IMG/VR virus record: IMGVR_UViG_2526164596_000013
Reading direction: 5' to 3' (one strand)
Source of the DNA: a virus
Taxonomy: Duplodnaviria > Heunggongvirae > Uroviricota > Caudoviricetes
Length of the DNA stretch: 50,979 bases
Made by a program: the position numbers and the translations under genes. The stretch's first letter is position 1. Each line of letters opens with the position of its first letter. Shown here in pieces: positions 31,551-50,979 of this stretch. The notes below the pieces were generated by a model. That model ran no database searches and was not told where the DNA came from. It saw only the letters and a list, made by a program, of their open reading frames with translations.

Positions 31551-31577
31551 CAGAAAAACCCGCTCAGCGGCGGGTTT
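31551..31577 (-). terminator. second candidate intrinsic terminator on minus strand
   Basis: hairpin aacccgc-cgctga-gcgggtt followed by TTTTTCT on minus strand. Confidence 0.3.
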
Positions 31578-32004
31578 AAGCTGTGTGACGAAGTAACCAC
31601 TCTTAACAGCATAACCAATTTTTTACGTACGTAAACCACTAAATGATATTTGCGAGAATGCTACCGAGTATTGAAAACACCACTACAAATACATAAGCAA
31701 ATCTCAACAAATAACCAACAAATAATTTCCAGTGTTATTTTTAGCCTGTTTAAATTGAACCTTCAAATTATAGAGCACTTATAAATAACAGCCGTTAATA
31801 TAAATTGGCTAATAGATTTATTTTTATTCAGCCAAGAGCCATGAATAGGATTCGATAGAAAAAAGTTCAGATAAAAATAGAGATCTACTTCACAAATCAA
31901 ACGAGAAACCAAAACTTACATCTTGAAATAATCACATTGATTAGATGAATATTTATCGCGCAGTGACATCATTTTTTAATAATAGTTCAAAAAAAGGGCT
32001 CACG

Positions 32005-34696: not shown

Positions 34697-34717
34697 ACAG
34701 AGAAAAAAACTCAGTCA

Positions 34718-34921
34718 TCACGCAGTAAACTCCTTCACCAGTATTTCAAACTGGCTTACCTGTCCTTCCAGTTCCTCCACGCAATCCACCAGCTCATCCA
34801 CCGCCTTTTGTGTACGGTGTTTTGCCTGCAGCAGATCACGAAGCGCCGGAGTAAGCTGCTTGCGGAGCGTATCTTTTGCCACGCTCGTTTTTTCCATCTG
34901 TTCAGCACAACGAAGCATCTC
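34718..34921 (-). CDS. hypothetical small coiled-coil protein
   Basis: ORF 34718-34975 (TTG at 34975 overlapping dnaB stop; first ATG at 34921); fills gap between helicase and DUF968 genes. Confidence 0.35.
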   Translation of the reverse strand, partial: EMLRCAEQMEKTSVAKDTLRKQLTPALRDLLQAKHRTQKAVDELVDCVEELEGQVSQFEILVKEFTA

Positions 34922-34971
34922 CTGCGCCTGCCGACGAAGTTGTTCCGGTGAAACAGTGGTTGTTCTGTTGT

Positions 34972-36372
34972 TCAAAATAAACGCTCCGTTTTACTGCCCG
35001 ACATGCGGTTATTGCTGTATCTGCGCGGATTGCCCGGCGTCATGGGTGTGGAAAGAACCCGGGCACTCTCCTGGTCCACAGGCAGAAAATGTCCGTTATG
35101 AAAACGCCGGTAAATGGTCCCGAGCGTGCCATTACGCTGTTTCGTGATGTTGATTTCTGCTATGCCTCTGGCCTGAGTTTCCGGGTTGTATACCTCATCC
35201 CTGTAAAGCATCAGAATGATGTCGGCATCCGCCTCGATTTCCCCGGAGTTTTTCAGGTCCGAGTTCATTGGGCGTTTATTGGGTCTGGATTCCACGCCGC
35301 GGGAGAGCTGGCTCAGAGCAATCAGCGGAAAACCGCCGGATTTTGCCAGGCTTTTAAGTCCCTTTGAGATTTCCCCCACCGCAAGGTCGTGACGCCCCGT
35401 GCTGCGGGTTTTAATCAGGCCGAGGTAATCGACCACCACCAGCGCCGTTTCCGGGTGTTTCATCCGGTGGTGCTTCGTGGTTGCACATATCTCATCAATG
35501 GTCAGGTTTGCCTGGTCCACCATCCAGATATTACGCCCCGTCATTCGTCCCACGCCCTGCGAGAAACGCGCCCAGTCTTCATCTTCAAAACGGGCAACAG
35601 ACTTAAGACGGGATACCGGCATTCCACCGGCAGCAGACACCATACGTTCACCAATCTGGATGTTCGCCATCTCCATGGTGAACAGAAGCACGCCATGCCC
35701 CTGCTCAGTCACCTTGTCGATGATGTCCAGCGCAAGTTCGGTTTTCCCCATCGAAGGACGGGCGGCAATGAATACCAGGTCTCCGGGCTCCATACCGCCC
35801 GTTTTTGCGTCCAGTTCATCAATACCGGTCATCAGCGCCCTGGATTTCTCCAGTCCCTGATTGCGGCATTCAACACGGTCGACCACTTCCGGAAGGACAT
35901 CATCAATGTGAACCGGCTGAATGACGCCCTTTCCGGTCGACAGTGAGGCCATCATGTTCTGCGCATCCTTCAGGGCATCCTCGGCTGCTTCACAGGTATA
36001 CGCATCACGTAAATTCTGTAATGCTTCAGTCAGTGTTTTTTCTGCATCGCGCAGTGCGGCATTGCGCCGTAACGCTGCGACATAGTGCTCCAGTGAAGAC
36101 TTCACCCAGGTTTTGCGTCCGGTGTCGGTAATCACCGGGGCAAGTTCCGGCATCTCATTGCACAGCAGTACGGGGTCAATGACGCCGGATATGCGAGCCT
36201 GTCTGCAAATCCCCGCGTAAATATCCCGGTACTGACGCACAAAAAATACATCCGCCGGAAGTGTGGCCAGAATATCCATCACTTCCGGATCGGCCCCACG
36301 CAGAAAAAACGCACCGATGACAGCGCCTTCCAGGTCATCGTTACGCCATGCCGGGGTGTTCTGGCTGGTCAT
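34972..36372 (-). CDS. replicative DNA helicase (DnaB family)
   Basis: 466-aa ORF; Walker A GARPSMGKTELAL, DnaB-like C-terminal RecA fold motifs (IALSQLSRGVESR..., EIEADADIILMLYRDEVYN). Confidence 0.85.
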   Translation of the reverse strand: MTSQNTPAWRNDDLEGAVIGAFFLRGADPEVMDILATLPADVFFVRQYRDIYAGICRQARISGVIDPVLLCNEMPELAPVITDTGRKTWVKSSLEHYVAALRRNAALRDAEKTLTEALQNLRDAYTCEAAEDALKDAQNMMASLSTGKGVIQPVHIDDVLPEVVDRVECRNQGLEKSRALMTGIDELDAKTGGMEPGDLVFIAARPSMGKTELALDIIDKVTEQGHGVLLFTMEMANIQIGERMVSAAGGMPVSRLKSVARFEDEDWARFSQGVGRMTGRNIWMVDQANLTIDEICATTKHHRMKHPETALVVVDYLGLIKTRSTGRHDLAVGEISKGLKSLAKSGGFPLIALSQLSRGVESRPNKRPMNSDLKNSGEIEADADIILMLYRDEVYNPETQARGIAEINITKQRNGTLGTIYRRFHNGHFLPVDQESARVLSTPMTPGNPRRYSNNRMSGSKTERLF

Positions 36373-37277
36373 GCGGCAACACCTCCGATACGAGAACGGT
36401 AGCTGGGCCAGTTAAACGACAACCAGTTGCGCCCGCCATCGGTGATCCTGTCGGCAATCCGGGGACTGATGAACGCCCACAATTCTTCCGGTGAAAGGTT
36501 GCTGATCAGGATAGTTGGCAAAATACCCTCATACCGGGCATTGATAATTTCCTGCAAAATGGCCATTTCAGCCGCACTGCCAAACTGAACGCCGACTTCG
36601 TCGACAATCAGCAAATCCAGTGACGCATAATGCTCAATGACGTCATCCGCTGTTTTTTCACTGTCATTCCGCCAGCAGTTTTTCACAGCCCGGGTAAGGC
36701 GCATCACGTCGGTGATCTCCACACTGGCCAGATAGTTACGGATGATGTGTTTTGCCATTGATACCGCCAGATGATTTTTCCCGGTACCGCAACTGCCGGT
36801 CATAACAAGACTGGTACCGTTCTCCAGCATATCTGGCCAGTTCTCCGCATAGCGGCGACAGGCCGCAAGATTTCTGGCTGCGTCAGGATTAACCTCCAGA
36901 TAATTATCAAACTCGCAGTCCCGAAAACGCAGAGCAATTCCGGCGTTATCAGTCAGTTCTTCCGCCTTGAGGGACGACAGTTCCATGGTCAAATCACTGG
37001 CCTCAGCGATCAAGCAGTCAGGGCAGCATGAAATTTTTTCTCTGTCCTCGCCATTACGATCGATCCACACCAGTATATGCGTACGATATTTACCGTGTTT
37101 TTCGCAATATCCGCGACCTTCACGCATCAGGCAGGAACGATAAGGCCATGGCTTTTCGCCCTTCTGAGCAAATGCAATCTCTGCCCGTAACTCATCCATT
37201 TCTGCCCGTAACTCATCCATTCGCGCCTGTAGTCTTGTTTGTTTCTCACGTTGGTCAATCGTCATCATCGCTGTCAC
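36369..37277 (-). CDS. helicase loader, DnaC/IstB-like AAA+ ATPase
   Basis: 302-aa ORF; Walker A TGSCGTGKNHLAVSMA, Walker B LLIVDEVG; N-terminal Cys-rich segment; ATGA overlap with dnaB. Confidence 0.8.
   Translation of the reverse strand: MTAMMTIDQREKQTRLQARMDELRAEMDELRAEIAFAQKGEKPWPYRSCLMREGRGYCEKHGKYRTHILVWIDRNGEDREKISCCPDCLIAEASDLTMELSSLKAEELTDNAGIALRFRDCEFDNYLEVNPDAARNLAACRRYAENWPDMLENGTSLVMTGSCGTGKNHLAVSMAKHIIRNYLASVEITDVMRLTRAVKNCWRNDSEKTADDVIEHYASLDLLIVDEVGVQFGSAAEMAILQEIINARYEGILPTILISNLSPEELWAFISPRIADRITDGGRNWLSFNWPSYRSRIGGVAA
37180..37221 (-). repeat. perfect tandem duplication of a 21-bp unit inside the helicase-loader gene
   Basis: tctgcccgtaactcatccatt at 37180-37200 and again at 37201-37221; encodes RMDELRAEMDELRAE in frame. 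Confidence 0.8.
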
Positions 37278-37278
37278 C

Positions 37279-38205
37279 TCAGAATGTCAATTTGTTACTG
37301 GATTTACCGAATTTGTCAGACATGGCTCCCAGGCCAGCCAGGACATCGACCTGTCGCTGTCGCCCACCTCCGTGAGCGGCTGGCTGTTGCCAGTAATCTT
37401 CGAAGTGACGATCGGGTCCAAAGAACGTCGCAGCCTGCTTCACGAACTGTGTGCCGGTATTTCCTGTAGCACGTACCCAGGCGGCATACCGCTTCACGCC
37501 ATCAAGCATGGTCTCCGGTTTTATTCCCTCCCTGATACGGGCTTTCCAGGCTTTGAAGGCTGCTGACTTGGAATTGCCACCAGCACGTTTGGGATATTCC
37601 TGCCAGGCCTGTTCAAATTCCGGTGAATATTCCTGTCGGGCAGAACGCGCTGGTGCAGACGCGTCAGCGGATGCGCCAATATCTTGCGGTTCATGTTTTG
37701 AATTTACTGGTGGTTCATGTTTTAAACCTTGTGGATCTGGAGTCAGATTCTGAAGGGTCAAACGCGTATTTTTGCCAGAATCTGAAGGGTCAAACACGCC
37801 TGAACATACAGATTCTGACGGTTCAGATTTTGAAGGTTCAGAATCTGAAGGGTCACGTAATACTGAAAGTCTGCGCTGCTGTTTCAGTTCTGCAACCTTA
37901 TCCCGCTCAGTTCTGGCAAGCTGCTCAAGCCGATCAGCATTCAGATGATAAAGATTGGACGTATTACGGTTACCTTTGCGGCGTGACTGACGCGTCAGCC
38001 AGCCATCAGCCTCCAGTTCGGAGATTGCCGTTCTGACTGTACTTTCTCCCAATCCAAGCTGTCGACATATGGTTTCAACACCCGGGTAGCACACCCCGTC
38101 ATCATTCGAATAATCAGCCAGGCGCGCCATAATCATCAGTTTTGCACCTTTGACGCCATATGCTGCGCATGCATCCCAGACATTACCGAGGATCTTGCTA
38201 CTCAT
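37279..38205 (-). CDS. O: replication initiator (lambda O-like) with internal origin iterons
   Basis: 308-aa ORF; N-terminal DNA-binding-like domain, acidic/Pro-rich linker, iterons inside the coding sequence as for lambda O/ori. Confidence 0.7.
   Translation of the reverse strand: MSSKILGNVWDACAAYGVKGAKLMIMARLADYSNDDGVCYPGVETICRQLGLGESTVRTAISELEADGWLTRQSRRKGNRNTSNLYHLNADRLEQLARTERDKVAELKQQRRLSVLRDPSDSEPSKSEPSESVCSGVFDPSDSGKNTRLTLQNLTPDPQGLKHEPPVNSKHEPQDIGASADASAPARSARQEYSPEFEQAWQEYPKRAGGNSKSAAFKAWKARIREGIKPETMLDGVKRYAAWVRATGNTGTQFVKQAATFFGPDRHFEDYWQQPAAHGGGRQRQVDVLAGLGAMSDKFGKSSNKLTF
37687..37860. repeat. ori: origin-like iteron cluster inside O-like gene
   Basis: four copies of cag[at][at]tctga[ac]gg[gt]tca at about 37744, 37776, 37809 and 37839, plus two copies of ggttcatgtttt at 37687-37730. 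Confidence 0.6.
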
Positions 38206-38426
38206 ACGACACCTCCCAGACGCTTAAACATTTTTCCGGACTGAAACGCCACCAGCGGGTAACTCAGGGTATAAGTACGCCCCTGCACCTGGCAGACAAC
38301 CTTCTGACTTTCTGCATTGACCAGGCAAACCCGCAGAACGAGGCCGTTGCTGGTGGTAAACCACTGCCCCACTCGGGGGCAACGGTTGTATCGGTGATAC
38401 AGGAAATTAACGATGTGGCGGATCAT
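38202..38426 (-). CDS. hypothetical protein (74 aa), translationally coupled upstream of O
   Basis: ATGA overlaps at both ends (with O at 38205 and with upstream ORF at 38423-38426). Confidence 0.4.
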   Translation of the reverse strand: MIRHIVNFLYHRYNRCPRVGQWFTTSNGLVLRVCLVNAESQKVVCQVQGRTYTLSYPLVAFQSGKMFKRLGGVV

Positions 38427-38617
38427 GGACGCACCTCCGCCGTAGTTACGTATTTAACCGGGCTACCTTTCATTGAGATGGTTTCACACATCTCTGCCGC
38501 TTTCAGTTCCGCTGTTTTTCTGGATTTATAGCGACGGTGCCAGACAGATACATCCGTGCGAACTGATACATCGTTTCTGTATTCCGTAGTGGAGATGATG
38601 ATTTCGTAACTAATCAT
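38423..38617 (-). CDS. hypothetical protein (64 aa), translationally coupled
   Basis: start overlaps stop of 38614-39468 ORF; part of a chain of 4-nt-overlapping genes. Confidence 0.4.
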   Translation of the reverse strand: MISYEIIISTTEYRNDVSVRTDVSVWHRRYKSRKTAELKAAEMCETISMKGSPVKYVTTAEVRP

Positions 38618-39468
38618 GGGCGAACCTCCTTGTCAGAACCATTCAGCCTGGAATCAACAAGTGCAGCGCCAAAAACAGCATCACCAACACGGTCGTACAG
38701 TTTGCTAGCCAGCGGAGATTCAACGGCCTTAAGCATTGGATAAAGCTGGCTTGTCCAGATTTGATGGATTTCACGCAAATGCAGGTATACGCCTCTGGCG
38801 TTTCGTGCGACAGCTGACATATCAACCGCGTCAGCACCAGATAAATTCTTCTCCATCTGGTTAAAGGCGTTGATGTATGCCTCTTTGAACTGGGCAGCAC
38901 GTTTACCAGTGAAGCCCATGGCAAGAAACGCAAAACCGTCGCGGGTGATTTGGTAACAAGGGAGTTTGCGGCCTGATGCGTCGGTGTATTCACTTAACAC
39001 AAAATTGTGTTCAGTAAATTCAGCGGAACATTCGAGGTTTCTAATTCTATCTAAAACCCGCTCATGCCGTTTAGTAAAGTAATTAGCTACTGCAAGAGAT
39101 GTGGTGACAACGCGACCATTGATAATCGTGATTTCAGGGCGAGATTGGGTTGGGAGAGTAGTCATGGTGACAGCCCCTATGTTGAATTCAATGAACTCAC
39201 CACCAAGGCTTTCCACGACCATATAGGTGGTGAGACGTACAGGGGTGGAAATACCGGTCAACATAGAACCCGGCCCAACCGAAGTTGGCCCTGCACGCCC
39301 CACCATAATTTGGGCGTAACGATGCTCATGACACGAAAAAACCGCATGAGCGCGGTTGTGCTCTATATTGAATTTCGGGTTTCCACGCCCGGCACCCGCT
39401 TTATAAGGTGCAGAGACAGTGTAACGTCCCGAAATTGCAGAATCAATATTTGGTCTTGAAATGATCAT
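38614..39468 (-). CDS. phage regulatory protein, Rha-family domain in C-terminal half
   Basis: segment VVTTSLAVANYFTKRHERVLDRIRNLE...FVLSEYTDASGRKLPCYQITRDGFAFLAMGFTGKRAAQFKEAYINAF resembles the Rha phage-regulator domain as recalled; N-terminal 110 aa unassigned. Confidence 0.5.
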   Translation of the reverse strand: MIISRPNIDSAISGRYTVSAPYKAGAGRGNPKFNIEHNRAHAVFSCHEHRYAQIMVGRAGPTSVGPGSMLTGISTPVRLTTYMVVESLGGEFIEFNIGAVTMTTLPTQSRPEITIINGRVVTTSLAVANYFTKRHERVLDRIRNLECSAEFTEHNFVLSEYTDASGRKLPCYQITRDGFAFLAMGFTGKRAAQFKEAYINAFNQMEKNLSGADAVDMSAVARNARGVYLHLREIHQIWTSQLYPMLKAVESPLASKLYDRVGDAVFGAALVDSRLNGSDKEVRP

Positions 39469-39576
39469 ATAGCTGCTGATATCTTTAGAACTGTTCTTGG
39501 ATGTTTCGGAGCCGTTTTATGCGAAACAGCTCCCCGTTATTGATGTTGAGTGAGCCGGGTTACTCCCGGCTTTTTT

Positions 39577-40290
39577 TCATCGCTGCCAACCAATAACCTG
39601 AAATAACCCCATTTTCGGGTGATACCAGCGAGTCCCTCGCGGTTCTGCTTCCTCCATAACCCGATAAAAAGCAGCCATAAACGGTTCCACAGCAACAATT
39701 GCGCGACGTGACAACAATCCGTCCGGCGTCATGAACTCATGGGTGTCTGTAGGAATCTGATAGGCGTTCACCAGATTGCGGCATTTATCATCTGACAAAC
39801 CGGTTTTTGCTTTCAGTTGGCGATATCCGGCATAGCCCTCACGAATAGTGCCCTTTTTAATTTGCTCGACTGTTTCAGCAACGTGGCTGACTTTTTCTTC
39901 CACCTGAGTGATCCGTTTCTGTTGGCGAACGGCTTCAAGAGCCATCGCGGCAACCATTTCGATTTCGCTCATTGGCTTACGGATCTGTTCTTCCAGTTCG
40001 CGCCAGCGATCTACCAGGCGAGCAGTGAATTCAGGGCAGAGCTGTGCGACGACAATGATGCTGTCGCGCTTACCTTGTTCTCCTTCAAACAGGTAATGCT
40101 CATATTGAACTTTAAAACCTAAGTTATTGATTTTCTCGGAAACAGCCATTGGCGGTTTCCGGATGATGTTTTTAGCAACCAGGCGTTCGATACTACGTTT
40201 AACATCTGAGTGCTGACTACCCACCAGCTCTGCGATCTCAACGCTGGTCATGGATGCTTTGTCGTTAAAAATTGCGGTGTTCACTGCCAT
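39577..40290 (-). CDS. phage regulatory / antirepressor-like protein (Rha/Ant-type N-terminal motif)
   Basis: MTSVEIAELVGSQHSDVKRSIERL... motif; start at ATG 40290 preferred over 40326 (SD taaggag directly adjacent, so start uncertain). Confidence 0.45.
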   Translation of the reverse strand: MAVNTAIFNDKASMTSVEIAELVGSQHSDVKRSIERLVAKNIIRKPPMAVSEKINNLGFKVQYEHYLFEGEQGKRDSIIVVAQLCPEFTARLVDRWRELEEQIRKPMSEIEMVAAMALEAVRQQKRITQVEEKVSHVAETVEQIKKGTIREGYAGYRQLKAKTGLSDDKCRNLVNAYQIPTDTHEFMTPDGLLSRRAIVAVEPFMAAFYRVMEEAEPRGTRWYHPKMGLFQVIGWQR

Positions 40291-40403
40291 CTCCTTACGG
40301 ATAAATTCTTTTAAGATTCCGCACATTCGTACTTATTGGTGCCGAACCTTCCTTCAGTTATCCTTTTGATCCCTATAAACAAAAGAACCAAAGGAGGTTC
40401 GAC

Positions 40404-40697
40404 ATGAAAGTTCAGGCCGTTGGTTTATTCTGGTTTCGCGATGCGATTCAGTATCATGAGCTCAAAAATATTTTTACTGATGCTGATGTGCTCTCCGACA
40501 GTTACACCGAGTGGAAACACGACGCTGAAAAATTGATTAAGCGTGTCGAAAGAGGCGGGCAACGAGTTATTAAAGTTGAAGCGGATACAGCCGAGTTCAT
40601 CACCTGGTGTACAAGCGAAGGCATTGGAATCAATGCCGAAGGTAGAATGCAGTTCGCATCCTTTAAGGCTTACCAACAACTTCTCAGCGAACGCTAA
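40404..40697 (+). CDS. hypothetical protein (97 aa) between the cro-like gene and the Rha-like gene, opposite strand
   Basis: strong SD AAGGAGG 7 nt before ATG 40404; G-rich first codon positions; fully overlapped by an antisense ORF (40425-40757), so strand assignment is not certain. Confidence 0.45.
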   Translation: MKVQAVGLFWFRDAIQYHELKNIFTDADVLSDSYTEWKHDAEKLIKRVERGGQRVIKVEADTAEFITWCTSEGIGINAEGRMQFASFKAYQQLLSER

Positions 40698-40767
40698 TGT
40701 GATCGGGGCAATCGAAATGGTTGTCCCATCGTATTTAATAGTTATTTTTTCGCTCATATCACCACCA

Positions 40768-40977
40768 TCACTTCCCATCTTCCGTGTGCGCTAGGCTTGG
40801 GTGTGTATATGGAATGCTCGGATCCAAATGACAAAGAATGGCAACATCCTCCGGAACACCTCGCGTTTTCCACTTTCCAACACCTTGACTGCCACGAGGC
40901 CTTCCTTTCTTTGGGAACCTGCGACCAATAGCGGCATTGGTTTTAAATTGAATTTTTAATATTTCATAAAGGGTCAT
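40768..40977 (-). CDS. cro: Cro-like regulator (DicC/YdaS-type HTH)
   Basis: 69-aa ORF divergent from cI across a 111-bp operator region; FKTNAAIG...VGKWKTRGVPEDVAIL resembles the YdaS/DicC Cro-like family as recalled; no obvious SD. Confidence 0.5.
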   Translation of the reverse strand: MTLYEILKIQFKTNAAIGRRFPKKGRPRGSQGVGKWKTRGVPEDVAILCHLDPSIPYTHPSLAHTEDGK

Positions 40978-40989
40978 TCTTTAGTCTCA

Positions 40990-41070
40990 CACCAGATACT
41001 TTGTTATCCAACGATGTTAACCACAGGAATCCAAAGTATCAAGAAATTCTGTTACTTTAGTATCAACAAC
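40990..41070. promoter_or_regulatory. OR-like operator/promoter region between cro-like gene and cI
   Basis: inverted half-sites GATACTTTG (40995-41003) and CAAAGTATC (41032-41040), plus related TACTTTAGTATC (41054-41065). Confidence 0.5.
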
Positions 41071-41088
41071 CATGAGAGGAGAAGAAAA

Positions 41089-41745
41089 ATGAAGTCTTTA
41101 GGTGAACGTCTCATCAACGCACGGCAAAAAGCTGGGTTAACACAAGATGCGTTGGCTAAAAAAGCTGGGATCACCAGAGTTGCAATCAGTAAAGCCGAGC
41201 AAGGCCTTACAAAAAGTTTCAACGGTGACACCCTTTTTAAAGTTGCAGCTGCACTGCGGTGTTCACCGCAGTGGCTTCAGAACGGAGATGAAAAAGATAA
41301 GCATTGGGAAAATAATGTTAAGAGCTGCCCACAGAGAGACACAGCACACTCTTACCCTGTAATTAACTGGGTTCAGGCAGGATTATTCGCAACTTCTGGT
41401 GATGACTACAACATGTATGATCAGGATAATTGGAGGCATTCTGTAAAATACGCTGGTGAGAGGGGGTTCTGGCTGGAAGTGCACGGAGACTCAATGACTT
41501 CGCCCGTAGGAATAACATTTCCTGAAGGAATGTCGATCCTTGTCAACCCAGATAAAGAAGTTTTTTCAGGGTGTTACGTCATCGCCAGAAAAAAATCCAC
41601 CAATGAAGCAACATTCAAAAAATATATTTCTGACATGGGAAAGGCGTTTCTAAAGCCCCTTAATCCACAATATCCAATCATAGAAATGGACAATGATTGC
41701 GAAATAGTAGGTGTTGTGGTTGATGCCAGGTGGGATATTTTCTGA
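41089..41745 (+). CDS. cI: prophage repressor cI (N-terminal HTH, C-terminal S24 LexA-like autopeptidase)
   Basis: ATG 41089 with GGAGAAG SD; HTH LTQDALAKKAGITRVAISKAEQG; C-terminal GDSM Ser and downstream Lys (ATFKK) of S24 peptidases. Confidence 0.85.
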   Translation: MKSLGERLINARQKAGLTQDALAKKAGITRVAISKAEQGLTKSFNGDTLFKVAAALRCSPQWLQNGDEKDKHWENNVKSCPQRDTAHSYPVINWVQAGLFATSGDDYNMYDQDNWRHSVKYAGERGFWLEVHGDSMTSPVGITFPEGMSILVNPDKEVFSGCYVIARKKSTNEATFKKYISDMGKAFLKPLNPQYPIIEMDNDCEIVGVVVDARWDIF

Positions 41746-41747
41746 CC

Positions 41748-41850
41748 AGACACAAAACACAAAACACAAAAAGAAACCAAAGTATCAAAAATCACTTGCC
41801 ACACCTTGATACCTTAGTTACCATAAAACAAAGTTCGTAACTGAGGTATC
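41748..41850. promoter_or_regulatory. OL/pL-like operator region downstream of cI
   Basis: (CACAAAA)x3 at 41751-41773 followed by repeats of the same half-site as OR: CAAAGTATC (41778-41786), TTGATACCTT (41807-41816), GAGGTATC (41843-41850). Confidence 0.45.
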
Positions 41851-41855
41851 ATCTC

Positions 41856-42272
41856 ATGATCAATAAAGCTACAACTCTTGACTGTCTCGAAGAACTGAAA
41901 AACCTCGGCAGCCTCATTACACTAATAGCAAAAGCAACACCTGATGCTACGCTCTCTAGCGATATAGAGTCATGCGCAGGGCTGGCATGGGATATGACAA
42001 ATAGCATATCCAGAAAGCTATCGTCAGCAATGCTTTTACAGAATAAAAATTCTGCAATCAACAACCGTCTTCGCACCCAACGCGAAGCCTGCGGCTTAAC
42101 AACCGCCGAACTCGCCAGGCTGCTCGATCTCGATGAAGAAATTATCATCCAGTGGGAGAGCGGAGAGTATGAACCAACTATCAGTATGCTTATCCCACTG
42201 GCAAATATTCTTGGCTGCGATCCGATGTGGCTGTTAACTGGTAAACCAACAGGTGGGGATACTTGCGCATGA
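41856..42272 (+). CDS. hypothetical protein with C-terminal XRE-family helix-turn-helix
   Basis: 138-aa ORF; C-terminal LRTQREACGLTTAELARLLDLDEEIIIQWESGEYEPTISMLIPLANILGCDPMWLL is a Cro/C1-type HTH; first gene after the OL-like operators. Confidence 0.55.
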   Translation: MINKATTLDCLEELKNLGSLITLIAKATPDATLSSDIESCAGLAWDMTNSISRKLSSAMLLQNKNSAINNRLRTQREACGLTTAELARLLDLDEEIIIQWESGEYEPTISMLIPLANILGCDPMWLLTGKPTGGDTCA

Positions 42273-42511
42273 AAAACTGTGATGCTTACCATATTTGTCT
42301 CATTGGTGAATTGCTTGATTTCATACAAAAAAGCACTGCGCGCAATAATAAAAATATAACATATGGTGATCTGGTAATAATTTCAGAGGATATAAAGAGC
42401 ATCGCTCTTAAATTCAAGAGCGACGCGAGTATTGATGACGCTATTTACGCTTATCTTGCGAAAATAATTGACGGATCCAAAATCCAGCCTCTGGATGAAC
42501 CTCGTCAGTGA
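42269..42511 (+). CDS. hypothetical protein (80 aa), ATGA-coupled to the HTH gene
   Basis: ATG 42269 overlaps stop of 41856-42272; GGTGGGGA upstream. Confidence 0.45.
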   Translation: MKNCDAYHICLIGELLDFIQKSTARNNKNITYGDLVIISEDIKSIALKFKSDASIDDAIYAYLAKIIDGSKIQPLDEPRQ

Positions 42512-42668
42512 AAAACTCCTTTGATGAAGATGAGAACTGCTTCATAAACTTTACTTTATCTTCAGGTGAAACTACCTGACGAATTAATGCGGAGATAGCA
42601 ACTTTGTGCCAAATTAATTCTTTTTTGAGTTCTGAAATCTCTTTTTCGAGTTGCTCTGCGTTAATCAT
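42441..42668 (-). CDS. hypothetical coiled-coil protein (75 aa), convergent with the early-left operon
   Basis: ATG 42668 preceded by GGAGGA at 5-nt spacing; 3' end overlaps 42269-42511 on the other strand. Confidence 0.45.
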   Translation of the reverse strand: MINAEQLEKEISELKKELIWHKVAISALIRQVVSPEDKVKFMKQFSSSSKEFFTDEVHPEAGFWIRQLFSQDKRK

Positions 42669-42847
42669 TTATCCTCCATTGAGAGCTGAATTGAAAATGG
42701 GGACCAACACGCGGCTACGTGTGGTCGTGCGCCGGACACGGATAAGCATCCGGTAACTGATTATCAATCATTGCGGAAACAGTCTCAATATGAAAACACT
42801 TCTGAGACTCGCTATATAGCAGGACATATAAGTCAGCTGAGGAAGCC

Positions 42848-43213
42848 ATGAAAAAGTTCGAAAACATAACTGTTCTCCATGTTGATGACTTTGATTATAC
42901 AAACCCGGAACTTCTCCCGGAGGTTGTAAAGGCAATAGATGTTGCCGATATAGTGATTAGAGAAAAGAGAATTGTCAAAAACAGGCTCGCATGCACTTCA
43001 GGAGCAATGACAGAAACAACCTCACAGCAAGATAATTACGAAGGCATTTGTCTGGAGCCTGATTCATTTGCGGTAAATGTTTATCATTTATTGCATGCAA
43101 CACAGGTATTACATATGTCCAGTAATCACGAAACGAAAACACTCGGCAGCGAAATTCTGAGTTTTGCATGTGAGTATACAAAAGCTGCTGCCGAAAAAGA
43201 ATTAGCGCAATAA
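42848..43213 (+). CDS. hypothetical acidic protein (121 aa)
   Basis: ATG 42848 preceded by GAGGAAG SD. Confidence 0.45.
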   Translation: MKKFENITVLHVDDFDYTNPELLPEVVKAIDVADIVIREKRIVKNRLACTSGAMTETTSQQDNYEGICLEPDSFAVNVYHLLHATQVLHMSSNHETKTLGSEILSFACEYTKAAAEKELAQ

Positions 43214-43407
43214 CAACAAATATGCCCTGAACGTTTATTGCGGTTTTATCGCCGGGGATTGTTACAACCTTAATCCACAGGAGGCTTTATTGTGACTTTT
43301 ATAAAGAATATGGCATCACACAAGACCGCCTGCCTTATTGCACAATACGGTGAAAATTACATGCATATTGCCTGCTTATTTCTGCGTAAAGCATACGGGA
43401 GATAATA

Positions 43408-43620
43408 ATGCATCAGAAAACAGCAGAACACGAACAAACCAGAGTATTGCTGACCATCAAAAACGGGAAAGTAATATTCATTCGCCATGTTCATGACGAT
43501 GAACTTGTAGGAACTCTTTCAACATTCCTGTTTATTGCAGAAAGGGCAGGATATGACGTTATTGCACCAGCAGATGAAGATGAAGATGAAGATGAAGATG
43601 AAGATGAAGATGAGGAATAA
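43408..43620 (+). CDS. hypothetical protein with poly(Glu-Asp) C-terminal tail
   Basis: ATG 43408 with GGGAG SD; ends ...APADEDEDEDEDEDEDEE encoded by a hexanucleotide repeat. Confidence 0.5.
   Translation: MHQKTAEHEQTRVLLTIKNGKVIFIRHVHDDELVGTLSTFLFIAERAGYDVIAPADEDEDEDEDEDEDEE
43573..43614 (+). repeat. hexanucleotide microsatellite (GATGAA)6+GATGAG
   Basis: seven tandem 6-bp units at the 3' end of ORF 43408-43620. Confidence 0.9.
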
Positions 43621-43856
43621 ATATCATGCAATACGATGAATTCCAGGCTGAAGCAACAGCCAATGGTATACGAACTGGCAGTATGACGATTGATTATCAC
43701 GACGCCATACGTCGTCTGGATGCCGGAGAATTCGATACTCCTAATGTGCGAGGTTTACGTATCCTTCAGTGTCTGGCGCAAGCCGACGAAGCAGGATTAC
43801 TGGGTAAACTTCCGGTTGAGATGAAGGTTGCTCAGTGGCGATGGTTGGATTTGCCC

Positions 43857-44762
43857 CTATATTTCCAGACATCTGTTATCACTTAACCCATTACAAGCCC
43901 GCTGCCGCAGATATTCCCGTGGCGAGCGATAACCCAGCGCACTATGCGGATGCCATTCGTTATAATGCTCGAACGCCTCTGCAAGGTTCTTTGCTGCCGT
44001 TAACCCGTCTGGTTTGGGCATGATACTGATGTAGTCACGCTTTATCGTTTTCACGAAGCTCTCTGCTATTCCGTTACTCTCCGGACTCCGCACCGCCGTG
44101 TTCTTCGGTTCAAGTCCCAACATCCGGGCGAACTGGCGTGTTTCATTAGCCCGGTAGCATGAACCATTATCCGTCAGCCACTCCACTGGAGACGACGGAA
44201 GATCGTTGCCGAAGCGGCGTTCCACCGCTCCCAGCATGACGTCCTGTACTGTTTCACTGTTGAAGCCGCCGGTAGTCACCGCCCAGTGCAGTGCCTCACG
44301 ATCACAGCAGTCCAGCGCGAACGTGACACGCAGTCTCTCTCCGTTATCACAGCAGAACTCGAACCCGTCAGAGCACCATCGCTGATTGCTTTCTTTCACG
44401 GCCACTCTGCCTGTATGTGCCCGTTTCGATGGCGGTACAGCAGGTTTTCGCTCAAGCAACAGCGCATTCTGGCGCATGATCCGGTAAACACGTTTGGCAT
44501 TGATCGCAGGCATACCATCAAGTTCTGCCTGTCTGCGAAGCAGCGCCCATACCCGACGATAACCATACGTGGGCAGCTCTCCGATAACATGGTGTATACG
44601 GAGAAGCACATCCGTATCATCAGTGTGACGACTGCGGCGGCTATCCATCCAGTCATCGGTTCGTCTGAGAATGACGTGCAACTGCGCACGCGACACCCGG
44701 AGACAACGGCTGACTAAGCTTACTCCCCATCCCCGGGCAATAAGGGCGCGTGCGCTATCCAC
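43857..44762 (-). CDS. insD: IS2 transposase OrfB (DDE integrase core)
   Basis: 301-aa ORF matching IS2 InsD as recalled. Confidence 0.85.
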
Positions 44763-45085
44763 TTTTTTGCCCGTCCATATTCAACGGCTTCTTTGAGGAG
44801 TTCATTTTCCATCGTTTTCTTGCCGAGCAGGCGCTGGAGTTCTTTAATCTGCTTCATGGCGGCAACAAGTTCAGAGGCAGGAACAACCTGTTCTCCGGCG
44901 GCGACAGCGGTAAGACTTCCTTCCTGGTATTGCTTACGCCAGAGAAATAACTGGCTGGCTGCTACACCATGTTGCCGGGCAACGAGAGAGACCGTCATCC
45001 CCGGTTCAAAGCTCTGCTGAACAATTGCGATCTTTTCCTGTGTGGTACGCCGTCTGCGTTTCTCCGGCCCTAAGACATCAATCAT
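44720..45085 (-). CDS. insC: IS2 OrfA (HTH transposase subunit)
   Basis: [56 protein letters not shown]... matches IS2 InsC as recalled; overlaps orfB as expected for a -1 frameshift fusion. Confidence 0.85.
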
Positions 45086-45553
45086 CTGTTCTCCAATGAC
45101 TAGTCTAAAAACTAGTATTAAGACTATCACTTATTTAAGTGATACTGGTTGTCTGGAGATTCAGGGGGCCAGTCTAATGGTTGTATGTGACGACATTCAT
45201 CAACGAAGAAGAAGACAAGAACGGCACAATTGATATCTTGAATGAACACGGAACAACTGAACACGCCGTGGTATATAACGGGATGTATGGGTTTATGACG
45301 ATATATCCCGGCCCCATTCGATTTGCCTTACAACAGTATATTGAATGGAATTTAATTCAAAAATACGGCGAAGCTGAAGGAATGGGAAGAGCGCTGTTTC
45401 TTTATCAGAAAATGCTCACTACTTCCCCTGATAAAGGTTTCATTCTTTCAGATATGGGTCGAGAAGGGCTTGAAATCCTTCTGGATGAAATTATTAACGA
45501 AATGAATACTCATGGCATGCAATCCGAAACAGATATTAAGTAAAAGGGACCAC

Positions 45554-45775
45554 ATGACCGTTATCGAGCATATCCAGGAAAATCCAGATTGCAGTAGAGA
45601 AGATATATCCCTCGCACTTGGAAGAAGCGCAACTTCTATCAGTAATGAATTATCACGGTTATTGTGGAATGGGTTAATAGTACGAACTGGAGAAAAAAAC
45701 AAAATGATTCTGTACTGCGTAAACAATCTGCCGTTTGGATACAGCAATCCCCTAAGTGTTATGTTCAACCAGTGA
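45554..45775 (+). CDS. hypothetical small winged-helix-like protein
   Basis: ATG 45554 with AAGGGA SD just after the stop of the IS2-disrupted ORF; fold assignment is only an impression. Confidence 0.4.
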   Translation: MTVIEHIQENPDCSREDISLALGRSATSISNELSRLLWNGLIVRTGEKNKMILYCVNNLPFGYSNPLSVMFNQ

Positions 45776-45818
45776 TAGTGATGTTCCGACAGGAGAGAGC
45801 AGAGAAAGGGGAATCAGC

Positions 45819-46478
45819 ATGAAATTTTCCAAATTTTCTGAGTTGGTGAATCGTATTTTGTCCAACAACCACAGCCATCGTCGCGATATGGATGTAACGA
45901 TCGTTGTTCATTCGCCTGGCAGCATTGGTTCAACACCCTCAGTTGAAGTTCAGTCAATTCACGCTGGTTTTGATTGGGATTCCGGGAAAGTGCTGATTTT
46001 CCCAGCACAGCCACTGACCACTCTAACACCAGAACAGATTACTGATATTACTGATAGTGTGCGCAAAGGTCAGTCCTGGCACGCATATCAGGAATACAAG
46101 AAGCATAAAGAGCAGTTGGAAAAATTATCGATTGAACTTGATGCCGCAAAACAGCGCATTGCAGAGCTGGAGGGTAATTTCACGGCGCTGGCAGCGGAGA
46201 ATGCGGGGCTAAAGGCGATATGTGATGACCGTCGCAGGTTCATCATGAATGGGGTGCAGATGGGTTATATCAAGGTGCCAGCAGCGGAAACAGATCCAGA
46301 CCTTGAGACAATTCGCATTGCTATATCACCACAAAAGCCCATTCCAGCCACCGATGCTTTCCTGGCTGAAGTACGGGCGCAGGGCGTGGAGATGTTTGCG
46401 GAGTGTGCATACACGCTTGAACATCATGATCACGCAGTAGCCTTCGCCGCTGAGCTTCGCAAAGGAGGCAACCAGTGA
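45819..46478 (+). CDS. Ead/Ea22-like protein, paralog 1
   Basis: ATG 45819 with AAAGGGGA SD; coiled-coil segment ...ALAAENAGLKA... and C-terminus ...PATDAFLAEVRAQGVE...AAELRKGGNQ shared with the next gene. Confidence 0.5.
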   Translation: MKFSKFSELVNRILSNNHSHRRDMDVTIVVHSPGSIGSTPSVEVQSIHAGFDWDSGKVLIFPAQPLTTLTPEQITDITDSVRKGQSWHAYQEYKKHKEQLEKLSIELDAAKQRIAELEGNFTALAAENAGLKAICDDRRRFIMNGVQMGYIKVPAAETDPDLETIRIAISPQKPIPATDAFLAEVRAQGVEMFAECAYTLEHHDHAVAFAAELRKGGNQ

Positions 46479-47161
46479 GCAAGATTGACTATCAAGAACT
46501 GCGCGAGGCGGCGGAACAGGCAACGCAAGATGAATGGGTAGCATATATTTTGCCGGGTCATAACGGCATTTATCCTGCGCGCACGTCTGAGGGTAGGCAT
46601 TGCGGATACTTTATTGACTGGCCTGGCGTCTGTCAGGGGCGGGAGAGCATCAACATGAGCATCAGAACCTACGCAGTGAATTGCAATGACGCATGGCTAA
46701 ACACCGAAGGTGATGACATCTCCGGCTCATACGTTAAGTACAAAGACCATCAGGAAGTGGTTGCCGCTCTTGAGGCCAAGTGCGCGGCGCTGGCAGCGGA
46801 GAATGCGGGAATAAAGTCTGCAATTCCAGAATCACGGGATATTGAAGATGACAATGACAATATGGATGACGTATCTCTCGCGGAAGACTTCGGGTTCAAT
46901 CATGCAATAGAACGGATGAGGAGACAGATACCTGAAACGCCAACCACTGATGCTTTCCTGGCTGAAGTCCGGGCGCAGGGGGTGGATGCTGCTATAGAAG
47001 CTGCAAAAAATCTGGTGGCCCAAGAATATGAGTATAAGGATTTCAAAGCGGCGCAGAGTGATTGCTGTATGTACCCTGGTTCAGACCTGGTAGGGAAGGT
47101 TGAAATGACTGAGTGGTTAGTTGACTTTGCTGCCCAGCTTCGCAAAGGAGGCAACCAGTGA
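46475..47161 (+). CDS. Ead/Ea22-like protein, paralog 2
   Basis: GTG start overlapping previous stop (GTGA); N-terminus MSKIDYQELREAAEQA; repeats ALAAENAGIK and TTDAFLAEVRAQGVD...AAQLRKGGNQ. Confidence 0.5.
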   Translation: MSKIDYQELREAAEQATQDEWVAYILPGHNGIYPARTSEGRHCGYFIDWPGVCQGRESINMSIRTYAVNCNDAWLNTEGDDISGSYVKYKDHQEVVAALEAKCAALAAENAGIKSAIPESRDIEDDNDNMDDVSLAEDFGFNHAIERMRRQIPETPTTDAFLAEVRAQGVDAAIEAAKNLVAQEYEYKDFKAAQSDCCMYPGSDLVGKVEMTEWLVDFAAQLRKGGNQ

Positions 47162-47643
47162 GCGAAATTAATTACCAGGCACTGCGTGAGGTGGCGGAAC
47201 GTGCAATTCCAGCAATGGAACGCCTGTTAATGTTGCCAGCTGATGATGACTTGTTAAGTGAACAGGAACTTAAAGATTACGGTGTGGATATTGATGCGCT
47301 CAACGCCTTCAAATTTCTGACCGGACCAGAAACCGTGCTGGCACTGCTGGATGAACGGGAAAGAAACCTGCAATACATCAAAAGCCGCGATCAGGAGAAC
47401 GAGGATATTGCGCTAACGGTAGGGAAGCTGCGCGTTGAGCTTGAAGCAGAAAAACAGCGGGCAAAAGTTCTATTTATGGAAAATGCTCGGCTTAAGTCAG
47501 GCATAGCCGGTCTGATACACCTCGGTATTCGATATGCAGATGTTGAGGTCATGAAAATTGCTGGAGATGCCCAGCTTTCTACCCCATGCACTGACAGCAT
47601 CATAAACAGCATTGCAACAGGCATTCGCATCAAAGGAGAGTGA
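47158..47643 (+). CDS. Ead/Ea22-like protein, paralog 3 (N-terminal module only)
   Basis: GTG start overlapping previous stop; N-terminus MSEINYQALREVAERA parallels paralog 2. Confidence 0.45.
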   Translation: MSEINYQALREVAERAIPAMERLLMLPADDDLLSEQELKDYGVDIDALNAFKFLTGPETVLALLDERERNLQYIKSRDQENEDIALTVGKLRVELEAEKQRAKVLFMENARLKSGIAGLIHLGIRYADVEVMKIAGDAQLSTPCTDSIINSIATGIRIKGE

Positions 47644-47644
47644 T

Positions 47645-48160
47645 ATGGCGTTAACACACCACGAACTCTGTCAGATTGCGTACAAGTTCCTTAAGCGCAA
47701 CGGGTTCAAGGTTTGCTTTCATGACCGCTTTGTTGCTGTAACCAGTACCGGAGAACAGCCAGATGCTATGGGATTCAGAAATTCAGCATCATGCCTGATA
47801 GAGGCGAAGTGTTCTCGTGCTGACTTGTTGGCAGATAGAAAAAAGCGTTTCCGTAAAAATCCCTCACTTGGCATGGGCGACTGGCGATTCTTTATTAGTG
47901 AGCCGGAAATTATTTCAGTTGAGGATTTACCTCCCGGCTGGGGATTACTTCACGTTGTTAACGGAAGAGTACGGAAAGTACATGGATGGCCCAGGGGTAA
48001 TTGCTGTTGGGGTAATCCTGACGATAAGCCATTTACTGGGAATAAGCAGGTTGAATGCGATTACATGTTATCTGCATTAAGGCGCATGGAGTTGAGAGGG
48101 CACCTTAATGAAATATATGACGGTGTGATTGTTAATAAGAAAGAAGGAAACGCGGCATGA
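47645..48160 (+). CDS. hypothetical protein with PD-(D/E)xK nuclease-like motif
   Basis: ATG 47645 with AAAGGAGAG SD; product has ...TGEQPDAMGF...(12 aa)...CLIEAKCS (D ... E-x-K spacing typical of restriction-endonuclease-fold nucleases) and a Cys-rich segment GNCCWGNPDDKPF. Confidence 0.45.
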   Translation: MALTHHELCQIAYKFLKRNGFKVCFHDRFVAVTSTGEQPDAMGFRNSASCLIEAKCSRADLLADRKKRFRKNPSLGMGDWRFFISEPEIISVEDLPPGWGLLHVVNGRVRKVHGWPRGNCCWGNPDDKPFTGNKQVECDYMLSALRRMELRGHLNEIYDGVIVNKKEGNAA

Positions 48161-48888
48161 TCACTATTACCAAAGGGCGACTGCTGACAATCAAGCAGTG
48201 GCGCGAAACATACGGACCGGGTAGCAACGTTGTGCTTCCAGCAGAAGAAGCGGAAGAGCTGGCACGGATTGCGCTGGCATCACTGGCAGCAGAGCCGGTG
48301 GCAAAGATTATAGCTCATTACCCATTAGGAGTTGACGCAGGCAAACAAAAATTCGTACAGGCCATTAGAGAGCTTCCTGACTTTGGCGGATATCTATTTG
48401 CCGCCCCTCCAGCGCCGATAGTGCCGGAAGAAATGTATTGGCAGGATGCGCCAGTTGAAGGCAGCAGCAAAGCGGCTGCATACGCTACAGGCTGGAACGA
48501 TTGCCGCGAAGCCATGCTTCAGTCCGGAAACTTTCGGGAAAATAAAGATTCGTCAACCAATAATTTTCGGAAAATCCCGGAAGCGTCAACCAGCTCTCCG
48601 GTAACTCCGGCTCTTCTGCCTGGTGGTTTCACCATTGAGGAGGCGAAGGAATTACATGAAGACCTGGTACGCAGCCACATAAGCAAGGCCTTAAGTGGCG
48701 AAAAGATGAAAAAGAAAGATCGCGATGCTGATTTGCGCTGGATTCATGGCGTTATAGTTCAGGCAGCGTGGTTTGTAAAAGCATCACTGGAGCAGAATGC
48801 ACTATCGGGCAACTCTCCGGTAACTCCGGATGGTTGGATAAGCTGTAGTGAGCGAATGCCGGACGACAGGCAGGAGGTGAATCAATGA
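48157..48888 (+). CDS. hypothetical protein (243 aa) ending in a WIS..ER.P motif reminiscent of DUF551
   Basis: ATGA-coupled to the upstream gene; contains an internal direct repeat (ctctccggtaactccgg at about 48590 and 48810, SPVTP twice). Confidence 0.45.
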   Translation: MITITKGRLLTIKQWRETYGPGSNVVLPAEEAEELARIALASLAAEPVAKIIAHYPLGVDAGKQKFVQAIRELPDFGGYLFAAPPAPIVPEEMYWQDAPVEGSSKAAAYATGWNDCREAMLQSGNFRENKDSSTNNFRKIPEASTSSPVTPALLPGGFTIEEAKELHEDLVRSHISKALSGEKMKKKDRDADLRWIHGVIVQAAWFVKASLEQNALSGNSPVTPDGWISCSERMPDDRQEVNQ

Positions 48889-48968
48889 GCTGGCCTGATG
48901 CAATCGTAACTCTGGGGGTGGTATTCGCAGCAGCGTTTGTTGTGTTCTCGATTTGTCGATGGGGATAA
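48885..48968 (+). CDS. hypothetical 27-aa hydrophobic peptide
   Basis: ATG 48885 overlaps upstream stop (ATGA), AGGAGG 9 nt upstream; product MSWPDAIVTLGVVFAAAFVVFSICRWG. Confidence 0.3.
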   Translation: MSWPDAIVTLGVVFAAAFVVFSICRWG

Positions 48969-48972
48969 CCAC

Positions 48973-49215
48973 ATGTTCGCTTTGATTCAACGCGGTCAGA
49001 TATACACGGACAGAGCCGGATACCCCGTGGTGATTACTCGCATCACTGAGCACTCAGTGTTCTTTCGACGGATGGACGGACGATCCGGGCGGGTACGCAT
49101 TGGTGAGTTAAACTGCCTGTTCGAACATATTGACCACCAGGAGTACCGCAAAATTCTCGCGGACACTGAGCAGGAAAAGCACCTGAAAAAATTACGAGCC
49201 ATAAAAAGGAAGTAA
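48973..49215 (+). CDS. hypothetical protein (80 aa)
   Basis: ATG 48973 within ORF 48937-49215; basic C-terminus. Confidence 0.4.
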   Translation: MFALIQRGQIYTDRAGYPVVITRITEHSVFFRRMDGRSGRVRIGELNCLFEHIDHQEYRKILADTEQEKHLKKLRAIKRK

Positions 49216-49218
49216 AGA

Positions 49219-49365
49219 ATGAATAAAGCATTTGAACGATGGGTCCACCAGCGTTACGGCAATCGCTATGACCTGACGCGAGATGTTGACGGCTTCCACT
49301 GTCGTGAAGTTGTGAAGCGAATGTTTGAAGTGTGGTGCCACTGCCGTGGGCTGAGTGTTGTGTGA
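49219..49365 (+). CDS. hypothetical 48-aa Cys/His-containing protein
   Basis: ATG 49219 preceded by AAAGGAAG; product MNKAFERWVHQRYGNRYDLTRDVDGFHCREVVKRMFEVWCHCRGLSVV; below ORF-track cutoff. Confidence 0.35.
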   Translation: MNKAFERWVHQRYGNRYDLTRDVDGFHCREVVKRMFEVWCHCRGLSVV

Positions 49366-49373
49366 GGTAATAC

Positions 49374-49610
49374 ATGGGCAATGTGATTCAACTGGCTCCC
49401 AATGAATGGGTTTGTGAAAGCGTTCTTATCGCAATTACCGGGCTCAAACCAGGCACAATTCTTCGGGCCCGGAAAGAATGCTGGATGGTTGGAAGAGAGT
49501 ATATTCACGTATCACCAGACGGTAATCCAAAGCCTTCCAGTGAATGTATGTATAACAGAAAAGCAATAGATGCCTGGGTCGCCTCAATGAAAAACAAACA
49601 ACCCAGGTGA
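49374..49610 (+). CDS. xis: excisionase-like protein (Xis)
   Basis: 78-aa ORF immediately upstream of int with GAGG SD; small basic protein in the canonical xis position. Confidence 0.6.
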   Translation: MGNVIQLAPNEWVCESVLIAITGLKPGTILRARKECWMVGREYIHVSPDGNPKPSSECMYNRKAIDAWVASMKNKQPR

Positions 49611-49665
49611 TTTAATATCATGAAATATGTAAGCTCGTATCGCTCTTGGGCGTCTGGAGGTATCG

Positions 49666-50979
49666 ATGGATAAAGTCAAATATCCAACAGGCGTCGAAAA
49701 CCACGGCGGCACATTACGCATCTGGTTTAATTTTAAAGGTAAACGTGTCAGGGAAAATCTTGGTGTCCCTGACACTGCCAAGAACAGGAAGATCGCCGGG
49801 GAACTGCGGACATCAGTATGTTTTGCCATCCGCACAGGAAGCTTTGATTATGCTGCACAGTTCCCTGACTCCCCCAACCTTCAGGCTTTTGGGGTAAGTA
49901 AAAAAGAAATTACGGTGAAGGAACTTGAAGAAAAGTGGCTGGATCTGAAACGAATGGAAATCTCTGCAAATGCATTCAATCGCTATGAATCCGTTGCAAG
50001 AACGATGGTTCCGAAAATTGGAGGCAGTAGACTGGTATCATCGGTAACCAAAGAGGAATTGCTGTATATCAGGAAAGATTTGCTTACCGGGTATCAGAAT
50101 TCAACGAAAAACAAAGCAGCAGCAAAAGGACGGAGCGTCGTTACTGTAAATTATTACATGACGACAATCGCTGGAATGTTTCAGTTTGCTGCAGATCACG
50201 GTTACTTAGAAGCAAATCCCTTCCAGGGAATTAAGCCTCTTAAAAGAGCCAGGGCAGAGCCAGATCCGCTAACTCGTGACGAATTTATTCGCCTGATAGA
50301 TGCTTGCCGACATCAGCAGACGAAAAACCTGTGGTCATTGGCTGTGTACACAGGAATGCGTCACGGTGAACTGGTCTCCCTGGCCTGGGAAGATATCGAT
50401 CTGAAGGCAGGAACAATTACCATCAGGCGCAATTATACGAAACTTGGTGAGTTCACTCTACCGAAAACTGAAGCAAGCACAAACAGGGTTGTGCACCTTA
50501 TCCAGCCCGCTATCAGTGTCCTGAAAAATCAGGCTGAAATGACAAGACTGGGTAAGCAGTACAACATCAAGGTGCAACTACGTGAATATGGACGTTCAGT
50601 GAACCATGAATGTACTTTCGTGTTTAACCCTCAAGTGGTTAGAAAAAGCGAACAGGTAGGTTTTGTCTACAAAGTCGATTCTGTAGGTGACTCATGGGAA
50701 ACAGCCATTAAGCGTGCAGGGATCAGGCATCGAAAGGCATACCAGTCACGACACACTTATGCGTGCTGGTCATTATCTGCCGGAGCAAACCCAAGCTTCA
50801 TTGCCAGCCAGATGGGCCATGCAAGTGCCCAGATGGTATTCAATGTATACGGAGCATGGATGACTGACAGCAATGCAGAACAGATCGCAATGCTGAATCA
50901 GAAGCTGACAGATTATGTCCCAATGATGCCCCATAGTCACCAAAGTGACACCAGAGGCTTATTAAAATCAGTAAGTTAA
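49666..50979 (+). CDS. int: tyrosine integrase (phage integrase family)
   Basis: 437-aa ORF with GGAGG SD; C-terminal catalytic residues in ...RHTYACWSLSAGANPSFIASQMGHASAQMVFNVYGAWM...; stop at the last bases of the window. Confidence 0.9.
   Translation: MDKVKYPTGVENHGGTLRIWFNFKGKRVRENLGVPDTAKNRKIAGELRTSVCFAIRTGSFDYAAQFPDSPNLQAFGVSKKEITVKELEEKWLDLKRMEISANAFNRYESVARTMVPKIGGSRLVSSVTKEELLYIRKDLLTGYQNSTKNKAAAKGRSVVTVNYYMTTIAGMFQFAADHGYLEANPFQGIKPLKRARAEPDPLTRDEFIRLIDACRHQQTKNLWSLAVYTGMRHGELVSLAWEDIDLKAGTITIRRNYTKLGEFTLPKTEASTNRVVHLIQPAISVLKNQAEMTRLGKQYNIKVQLREYGRSVNHECTFVFNPQVVRKSEQVGFVYKVDSVGDSWETAIKRAGIRHRKAYQSRHTYACWSLSAGANPSFIASQMGHASAQMVFNVYGAWMTDSNAEQIAMLNQKLTDYVPMMPHSHQSDTRGLLKSVS

Follow-up and report, generated by a model that had tools for sequence, protein, structure and literature searches.

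How did an insertion sequence (IS) come to interrupt the early-left region of a lambda-type prophage, which gene did it break, and was the break favored by selection? These questions are raised by the virus record IMGVR_UViG_2526164596_000013 of IMG/VR, a 50,979-nt stretch of DNA (hereafter, the window, meaning this stretch at its full length), in which a 1331-bp IS2 element at 43846-45176 separates two open reading frames (ORFs) that begin at 43626 and 45181. We found that these two ORFs are one IS2-interrupted pseudogene, a homolog of the phiP27 gene L06 and of the protein family phrog_1515.

One phage gene split by IS2

Deletion of 43846-45181, which removes IS2 together with one copy of the flanking repeat, joins 43626-43845 to 45182-45543 in frame and yields a 582-nt gene encoding a protein of 193 aa. 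Over 1200 bp, the restored empty site matches a prophage of E. coli O111:H21 strain 15A at 100% identity, and the intact gene product there is WP_001199104.1. The protein encoded by the restored gene shares 100% identity with XSB43066.1 from Escherichia phage PhiR49_2, is 91% identical to proteins of many Stx1/Stx2 phages (LC5678xx records), and 65% identical to L06 of phiP27; the exact 193-aa sequence is found on at least 1000 contigs in a protein collection. In a comparison with the phrog_1515 profile, residues 1-192 aligned with positions 12-202 of 203 (E = 3e-90), and both halves of the split gene are accordingly covered within one protein. A first-pass annotation of this DNA had predicted that precise excision of IS2 would restore a 193-aa frame, and the 15A empty site, the PhiR49_2 protein and the full-length profile match all confirm this. 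The alignment with IS2-free relatives that it proposed was run and returned many intact homologs; the possibility it raised of unrelated flanking ORFs, with no intact homolog anywhere, thus fails. The match between the 5-bp flanks would, by itself, arise by chance with a probability of about 0.001; because the pre-insertion allele is also directly seen in a sibling prophage, the evidence for an insertion is far beyond chance.

IS2 breaks the gene between W73 and L74, within the WRW(L) motif that is invariant in the family. The 5' ORF now reads into IS2 and terminates at 43886; of its 86 aa, the final 13 come from IS sequence. The element is inserted in the minus orientation, opposite to the phage operon, with the transposase genes on that strand. 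Read from the sequence, it starts with TGGATTTGCCCC and finishes with GGCCAGTCTA, which are the known IS2 ends. A 5-bp target duplication is a known signature of IS2, and the ATGGT sequence that flanks the element on both sides is present in a single copy at the 15A empty site. The element is 100% identical, over the full 1331 bp, to a region of plasmid NZ_CP066033.1 annotated as "IS3-like element IS2 family transposase," and thousands of further IS2 copies match it at 95-100% identity; compared with reference IS2, the element itself shows no difference, and the insertion site alone is new. After a -1 frameshift, OrfAB extends over 409 aa free of stops and contains the HTH_Tnp_1, HTH_21, rve, and rve_3 domains. 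The layout of the inverted repeats (42 bp at the left end, IRL, and 41 bp at the right end, IRR), orfA and orfB, and the A6G frameshift site follow the described anatomy of IS2 (PMC3299598). Judged by these features, this is a complete, ordinary IS2 with a canonical 5-bp target duplication, and the copy is presumably functional and active. The placement of IS2 between two ATGGT copies in the first-pass annotation is therefore borne out by the coordinates, the sequence identity and the intact anatomy.

A sibling prophage without IS2 and the age of the insertion

The sibling that carries the empty site is a prophage located between yecD and yecE in strain 15A (NZ_CP077477.1). According to the 15A annotation, the prophage in the window is a lambda-type siphovirus at yecD/yecE, with homologs of gpFI, gpG/T, gpJ and Lom and a QuuD late antiterminator, as well as an OmpC-like porin moron, an Ile/Arg/Arg tRNA cluster, and a SASA/nanS-type esterase. 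The lambda-type head/tail module, the antiterminator, the porin moron, the tRNA cluster, and the esterase are all shared with the 15A prophage. On the left of the insertion, window positions 34246-43847 are 100% identical to 15A over 9602 bp; on the right, the identity is again 100% over 610 bp (45177-45786), and IS2 is simply absent. The last 4.8 kb of the window (46165-50979) contain one mismatch to 15A, and positions 1-35173 are 99.986% identical (1 mismatch, 4 gaps). Taken together, the differences between the two prophages over about 50 kb amount to 2 mismatches, 4 indels, and two IS events. Unlike the window, the 15A prophage lacks IS2 and instead carries another IS at the equivalent of window positions 45787-46164. 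On this evidence, we consider the two prophages to be the same element, with IS2 and IS903B as essentially the only differences.

The second of these events is an IS903B in 15A (L002 10206-11262) that replaces window positions 45787-46164; 378 bp were lost, and with them the beginning of the first Ea22-like gene. This independent event maps about 600 bp beyond the IS2 site on the downstream side.

The IS2 junction was found in none of the 5426 complete E. coli genomes, whether searched with a 2.5-kb query or with a 300-bp junction query, and an exact 30-mer spanning the junction had zero matches among IMG/VR and JGI metagenome contigs. The truncated 86-aa product is likewise absent from a collection of 15 billion proteins. 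As far as these searches extend, the IS2 insertion is a private, very recent event.

The phrog_1515 family and its place in the early-left region

The interrupted gene belongs to a family that, by all sequence indications, is real and constrained, with unassigned function and under purifying selection (dN/dS of about 0.2). The dN/dS values for the gene are 0.23 in comparison with the Stx1_EH1992 copy and 0.17 in comparison with phiP27 L06. A word-indexed search retrieved homologs in 464 database clusters at E ≤0.001, 133 representative clusters were found among 1.84 billion proteins, and the protein of the split gene is colinear with 46 homologs. Nearly all family members are single-domain proteins of about 190-210 aa, the named matches come mainly from Enterobacterales prophages, and three longer homologs (P0146, P0235, and P0178) contain no recognizable additional domain. 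Three other members (P0031, P0032, and P0035) are frameshifted in the C-terminal third, so that the gene sometimes decays in other prophages.

No function emerged from domain or structure comparisons. The 193-aa protein had no significant match in Pfam, NCBIfam or PADLOC, including no resemblance to the toxin or defense models of these collections, and a profile search of PDB sequences with the family gave zero matches even at E = 10. AF2 modeling yielded a confident structure (pLDDT 86.5, pTM 0.82) consisting of three successive beta-meander-plus-helix units, for which a Foldseek search against PDB and BFVD found nothing at E <0.001. These searches agree with the first-pass annotation, in which the disrupted gene had no known function. 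Precomputed PF17345 flags on some homologs were not reproduced in a direct scan. A RAST-style label attached to some Klebsiella copies, [quoted passage not shown] is unsupported by Pfam, NCBIfam or fold comparison. Our best guess is that the protein may be a dispensable early accessory protein that would be expressed on induction or infection.

The gene is located downstream of cI, on the strand shared by cI and int, between the immunity region and xis-int. Distant family members in Klebsiella phage KPP5665-2, Elizabethkingia phage EKP1, and Escherichia phage CharmingMan have the same placement between repressor and integrase, on the integrase strand, which is also retained in phiP27 and the Stx phages. 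Like the restored gene, phiP27 L06 encodes a full-length single-domain protein of about 190 aa; the copies in phiP27, PhiR49_2, and the Stx phages differ from the one in the window in that the latter is split. Following the winged-helix gene downstream of the split gene, the plus-strand order is Ea22-like genes, DUF551, xis, and int. The coordinates of these features and of the IS2 components are listed in Table 1.

Table 1. Features of the IS2-interrupted gene, the element and the surrounding early-left region (window coordinates)
Feature	Coordinates	Strand	Basis or remark
cI-type repressor, HTH_3 and Peptidase_S24	41014-41745	+	Likely true start ATG 41090, giving 218 aa as in 15A
Candidate OL/pL downstream of cI	41766-41851	+	Motif and promoter scan
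HTH_3 protein, first gene after the candidate promoter	41856-42272	+	Domain and phrog scans
L08-like gene, followed by a 37-aa ORF	42848-43213	+	Gene order
Upstream neighbor, 70 aa, phrog_340 (unassigned function), poly-(ED) tail	43408-43620	+	ORF list, phrog match
Disrupted gene, 5' part (codons 1-73 and first base of codon 74)	43626-43845	+	N-terminal match of residues 1-73 to phrog_1515 and to intact homologs
Target-site duplication ATGGT, left copy	43841-43845		Sequence; single copy at the 15A empty site
IS2 IRR, 41 bp	43846-43886	-	Alignment of both ends; lengths as in PMC3299598
IS2 orfB, 301-aa frame, DDE/rve catalytic domain	43857-44762	-	ORF list, domain scan
IS2 orfA, 121 aa, start at 45085	44720-45085	-	ORF list, anatomy check
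A6G slippery heptamer, -1 frameshift to OrfAB	44762-44768	-	Anatomy check; PMC3299598
IS2 IRL, 42 bp, imperfect relative to IRR	45135-45176	-	End alignment; PMC3299598
Target-site duplication ATGGT, right copy	45177-45181		Sequence
Disrupted gene, 3' part (last 2 bases of codon 74, codons 75-193, stop)	45182-45543	+	Matches intact homologs over their C-terminal 119 residues
MarR-like winged-helix protein, 73 aa, first gene downstream of IS2	45554-45775	+	Domain scans
Excisionase xis (DUF1233), 4.2 kb downstream of IS2	49374-49610	+	Domain match
Tyrosine integrase int, at the window end	49666-50979	+	Annotation, domain match

A candidate operator-controlled early-left promoter (OL/pL) downstream of cI has good circumstantial support, short of proof. 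An operator-like motif, TGATACTWWRG, derived from the cro-cI spacer, matches six times in 51 kb: four matches are in the spacer itself (40979-41065) and two are located just after the cI stop (41777-41787 and 41807-41817). A 15-nt inverted repeat (41807-41821/41837-41851) adjoins the latter cluster, which also overlaps a promoter-like sequence, TTGCCA-17-TACCAT, on the plus strand at 41796-41824. The position downstream of cI and this combination of an operator-like cluster with a promoter-like site support the placement of the gene in an early-left (pL) operon that the first-pass annotation had assumed. The motif clusters at 40979-41065 and 41777-41851 are predicted to be the OR and OL sites of this repressor. 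Among the scanned proteins, and with no dedicated search made for it, no N-like protein was recognized; the first gene after the candidate promoter encodes the HTH_3 protein.

In E. coli phages that carry the phrog_1515 gene, as in the window, the small phrog_340 gene (L07 in phiP27) is the one upstream of it. In the phrog_340 protein, the poly-(ED) tail corresponds to a perfect (AGATGA)7 microsatellite (43572-43613), the unit of which is present in about 3 copies in PhiR49_2 and in a Logan contig, in about 2 copies in Stx1_EH1992, and in none in phiP27 L07; the lengths of the relatives' matches over the empty site differ by 6-nt steps. The tail is evidently a length-polymorphic repeat and no conserved feature. 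A conserved upstream partner was also considered and rejected: in Klebsiella-type phages, the protein encoded ahead of the gene is of phrog_1886 and shows no relationship to that of phrog_340.

Several other features of the prophage were observed. A 75-aa gene (phrog_20080) on the minus strand (42441-42668) is antisense within the early-left operon and overlaps a plus-strand ORF of 82 aa (phrog_23054); the minus-strand gene is equipped with a promoter-like site of its own at 42788-42760 and, at 42426-42399, with a strong terminator-like hairpin. The late regulatory region (28592-33087) resembles that of Stx phages, with a Q-type antiterminator region, a tRNA cluster (30934-31179; Met(CAT)/Arg/Arg, the first annotated as Ile in 15A) and a nanS-type esterase gene (28592-30445); stx genes are absent from the interval between tRNAs and esterase. 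The opposite strand encodes an OmpC/Lc-like porin (31945-33087). At the left end of the window (1-573), beyond a tail-fiber assembly gene according to the 15A annotation, a serine acetyltransferase gene is likely a moron at the prophage edge.

Consequences of the insertion and why it is there

The insertion would leave the gene null, with an 86-aa N-terminal stub as the predicted product and 119 C-terminal codons that lack a credible start. The sole in-frame start of the 3' fragment is a TTG formed at the junction, with no convincing ribosome-binding site, so that translation of this fragment is unlikely. On induction, early-left transcripts would extend into 1.3 kb of IS2 that is not translated in this direction, the RNA being antisense to the transposase genes; Rho would likely terminate such transcripts, which would reduce expression of the winged-helix, Ea22-like, and DUF551 genes and, possibly, of xis. 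A precedent is galEP3, an IS2 insertion at the beginning of the gal operon, where the element functions as a set of Rho-dependent terminators for the downstream genes (PMC3737525). The insertion in the window, besides truncating the gene, probably lowers transcription of the genes downstream. The two cases are alike in that IS2 is located within an operon; they may differ in the relative orientation of IS2 and in antitermination, which the phage operon may or may not have. The literature searched yielded no relevant paper on IS2 in early regions of prophages and, on IS2 polarity, little beyond the description of galEP3.

The best explanation, which we consider very probable, is that a complete, presumably active IS2 was very recently inserted into codon 74 of a 193-aa accessory gene of the yecD/yecE lambda-like prophage and that the insertion is near-neutral: a chance event in a presumably silent, dispensable part of the prophage, in a host lineage with active ISs. 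The independent IS903B insertion in 15A indicates that ISs are active in this prophage lineage, and a gene in a cI-repressed operon would not be expected to be expressed in the lysogen. The gene is present in 283 of the 5426 complete E. coli genomes and is uninterrupted at the DNA level, that is, with the best match in one piece covering at least 80% of the gene, in 282 of these, 121 of them at ≥99% identity. The first-pass annotation had suggested that selection against a gene with toxic effects on, or a cost to, the host may account for the insertion. Early-left regions of lambdoid phages do include genes, kil among them, that kill the host, the unassigned function and unmatched predicted fold leave room for toxicity, and the few frameshifted relatives (P0031, P0032, and P0035) would fit with it. 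Nevertheless, a knockout selected for this reason is very unlikely, given that the gene is in one piece in nearly all carrier genomes, the exact intact protein is widespread among contigs, the gene is under purifying selection, toxin and defense models are unmatched, the virtually identical 15A sibling retains the intact gene, and the junction occurs in no other sequence searched; moreover, the operon is apparently repressor-controlled, so the gene should be silent in the lysogen. IS3-family elements can create hybrid outward promoters, and IS2 has historically been linked to activation of neighboring genes, which suggests that IS2 could act as a mobile promoter for the downstream accessory genes in the lysogen; PMC9330008 is a review of this kind of activation. 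For the present insertion, such a role is barely credible and was rejected: the end next to the downstream genes is IRL, with a promoter directed into the element (PMC3299598); IRR, the contributor of part of the minicircle junction promoter Pjunc (PMC3299598), faces the upstream stub; and a consensus scan of 45000-45200 found no plus-strand promoter-like site.

Several points weigh against the near-neutral reading. Three independent IS events are located between repressor and integrase in this group of prophages, namely, IS2 in the window, IS903B in 15A, and ISEc20 in Stx1_EH1992 and Stx1_EH1995, and could hint at non-random targeting or selection. The count of uninterrupted genes measures DNA contiguity, not the integrity of the reading frame, and the frameshifted members named above exist. 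Motif clustering is the whole basis of the candidate pL/OL assignment, early antitermination may read through IS2 in this orientation, and both the neutrality of the insertion and the silence of the operon in the lysogen are what we infer. The clustering of IS events is also the main argument for an explanation in which the target is the operon: insertions upstream of xis and int would be favored because polarity lowers excision and induction and, thus, stabilizes the lysogen. The three events, one of them with a deletion, all lie between repressor and xis/int in related prophages, IS2 bears Rho-dependent terminators (PMC3737525), and xis is encoded on the same strand 4.2 kb downstream. Yet three events without a denominator carry little weight, in phages that remain transmissible, accessory regions are in any case the places that tolerate insertions, int (and perhaps xis) may be transcribed from a separate promoter, and most relatives carry no IS here; we therefore regard such stabilization as unlikely. 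It is quite unlikely, too, that phrog_1515 represents a new kind of early-left effector and that the clustering of IS2, IS903B, and ISEc20 reflects selection to disable the effector region or excision.

A near-neutral insertion remains the preferred explanation, and the case represents routine prophage wear, in which IS2 has entered a non-essential prophage gene and duplicated its target in textbook fashion. Its value is mainly in annotation, with the ORFs at 43626 and 45181 to be recorded as one IS2-interrupted pseudogene. Mildly notable are the family's predicted fold, for which no match was found, and the divergence, mainly through ISs, of two otherwise identical prophages. The window and 15A constitute a clean natural example of nearly identical prophages separated mainly by independent IS events, and the two alleles are a ready-made isogenic pair for work on phrog_1515 or on early-left polarity. 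Because the two prophages differ mainly by IS events, IS transposition, rather than point mutation, is the fastest change in this prophage.

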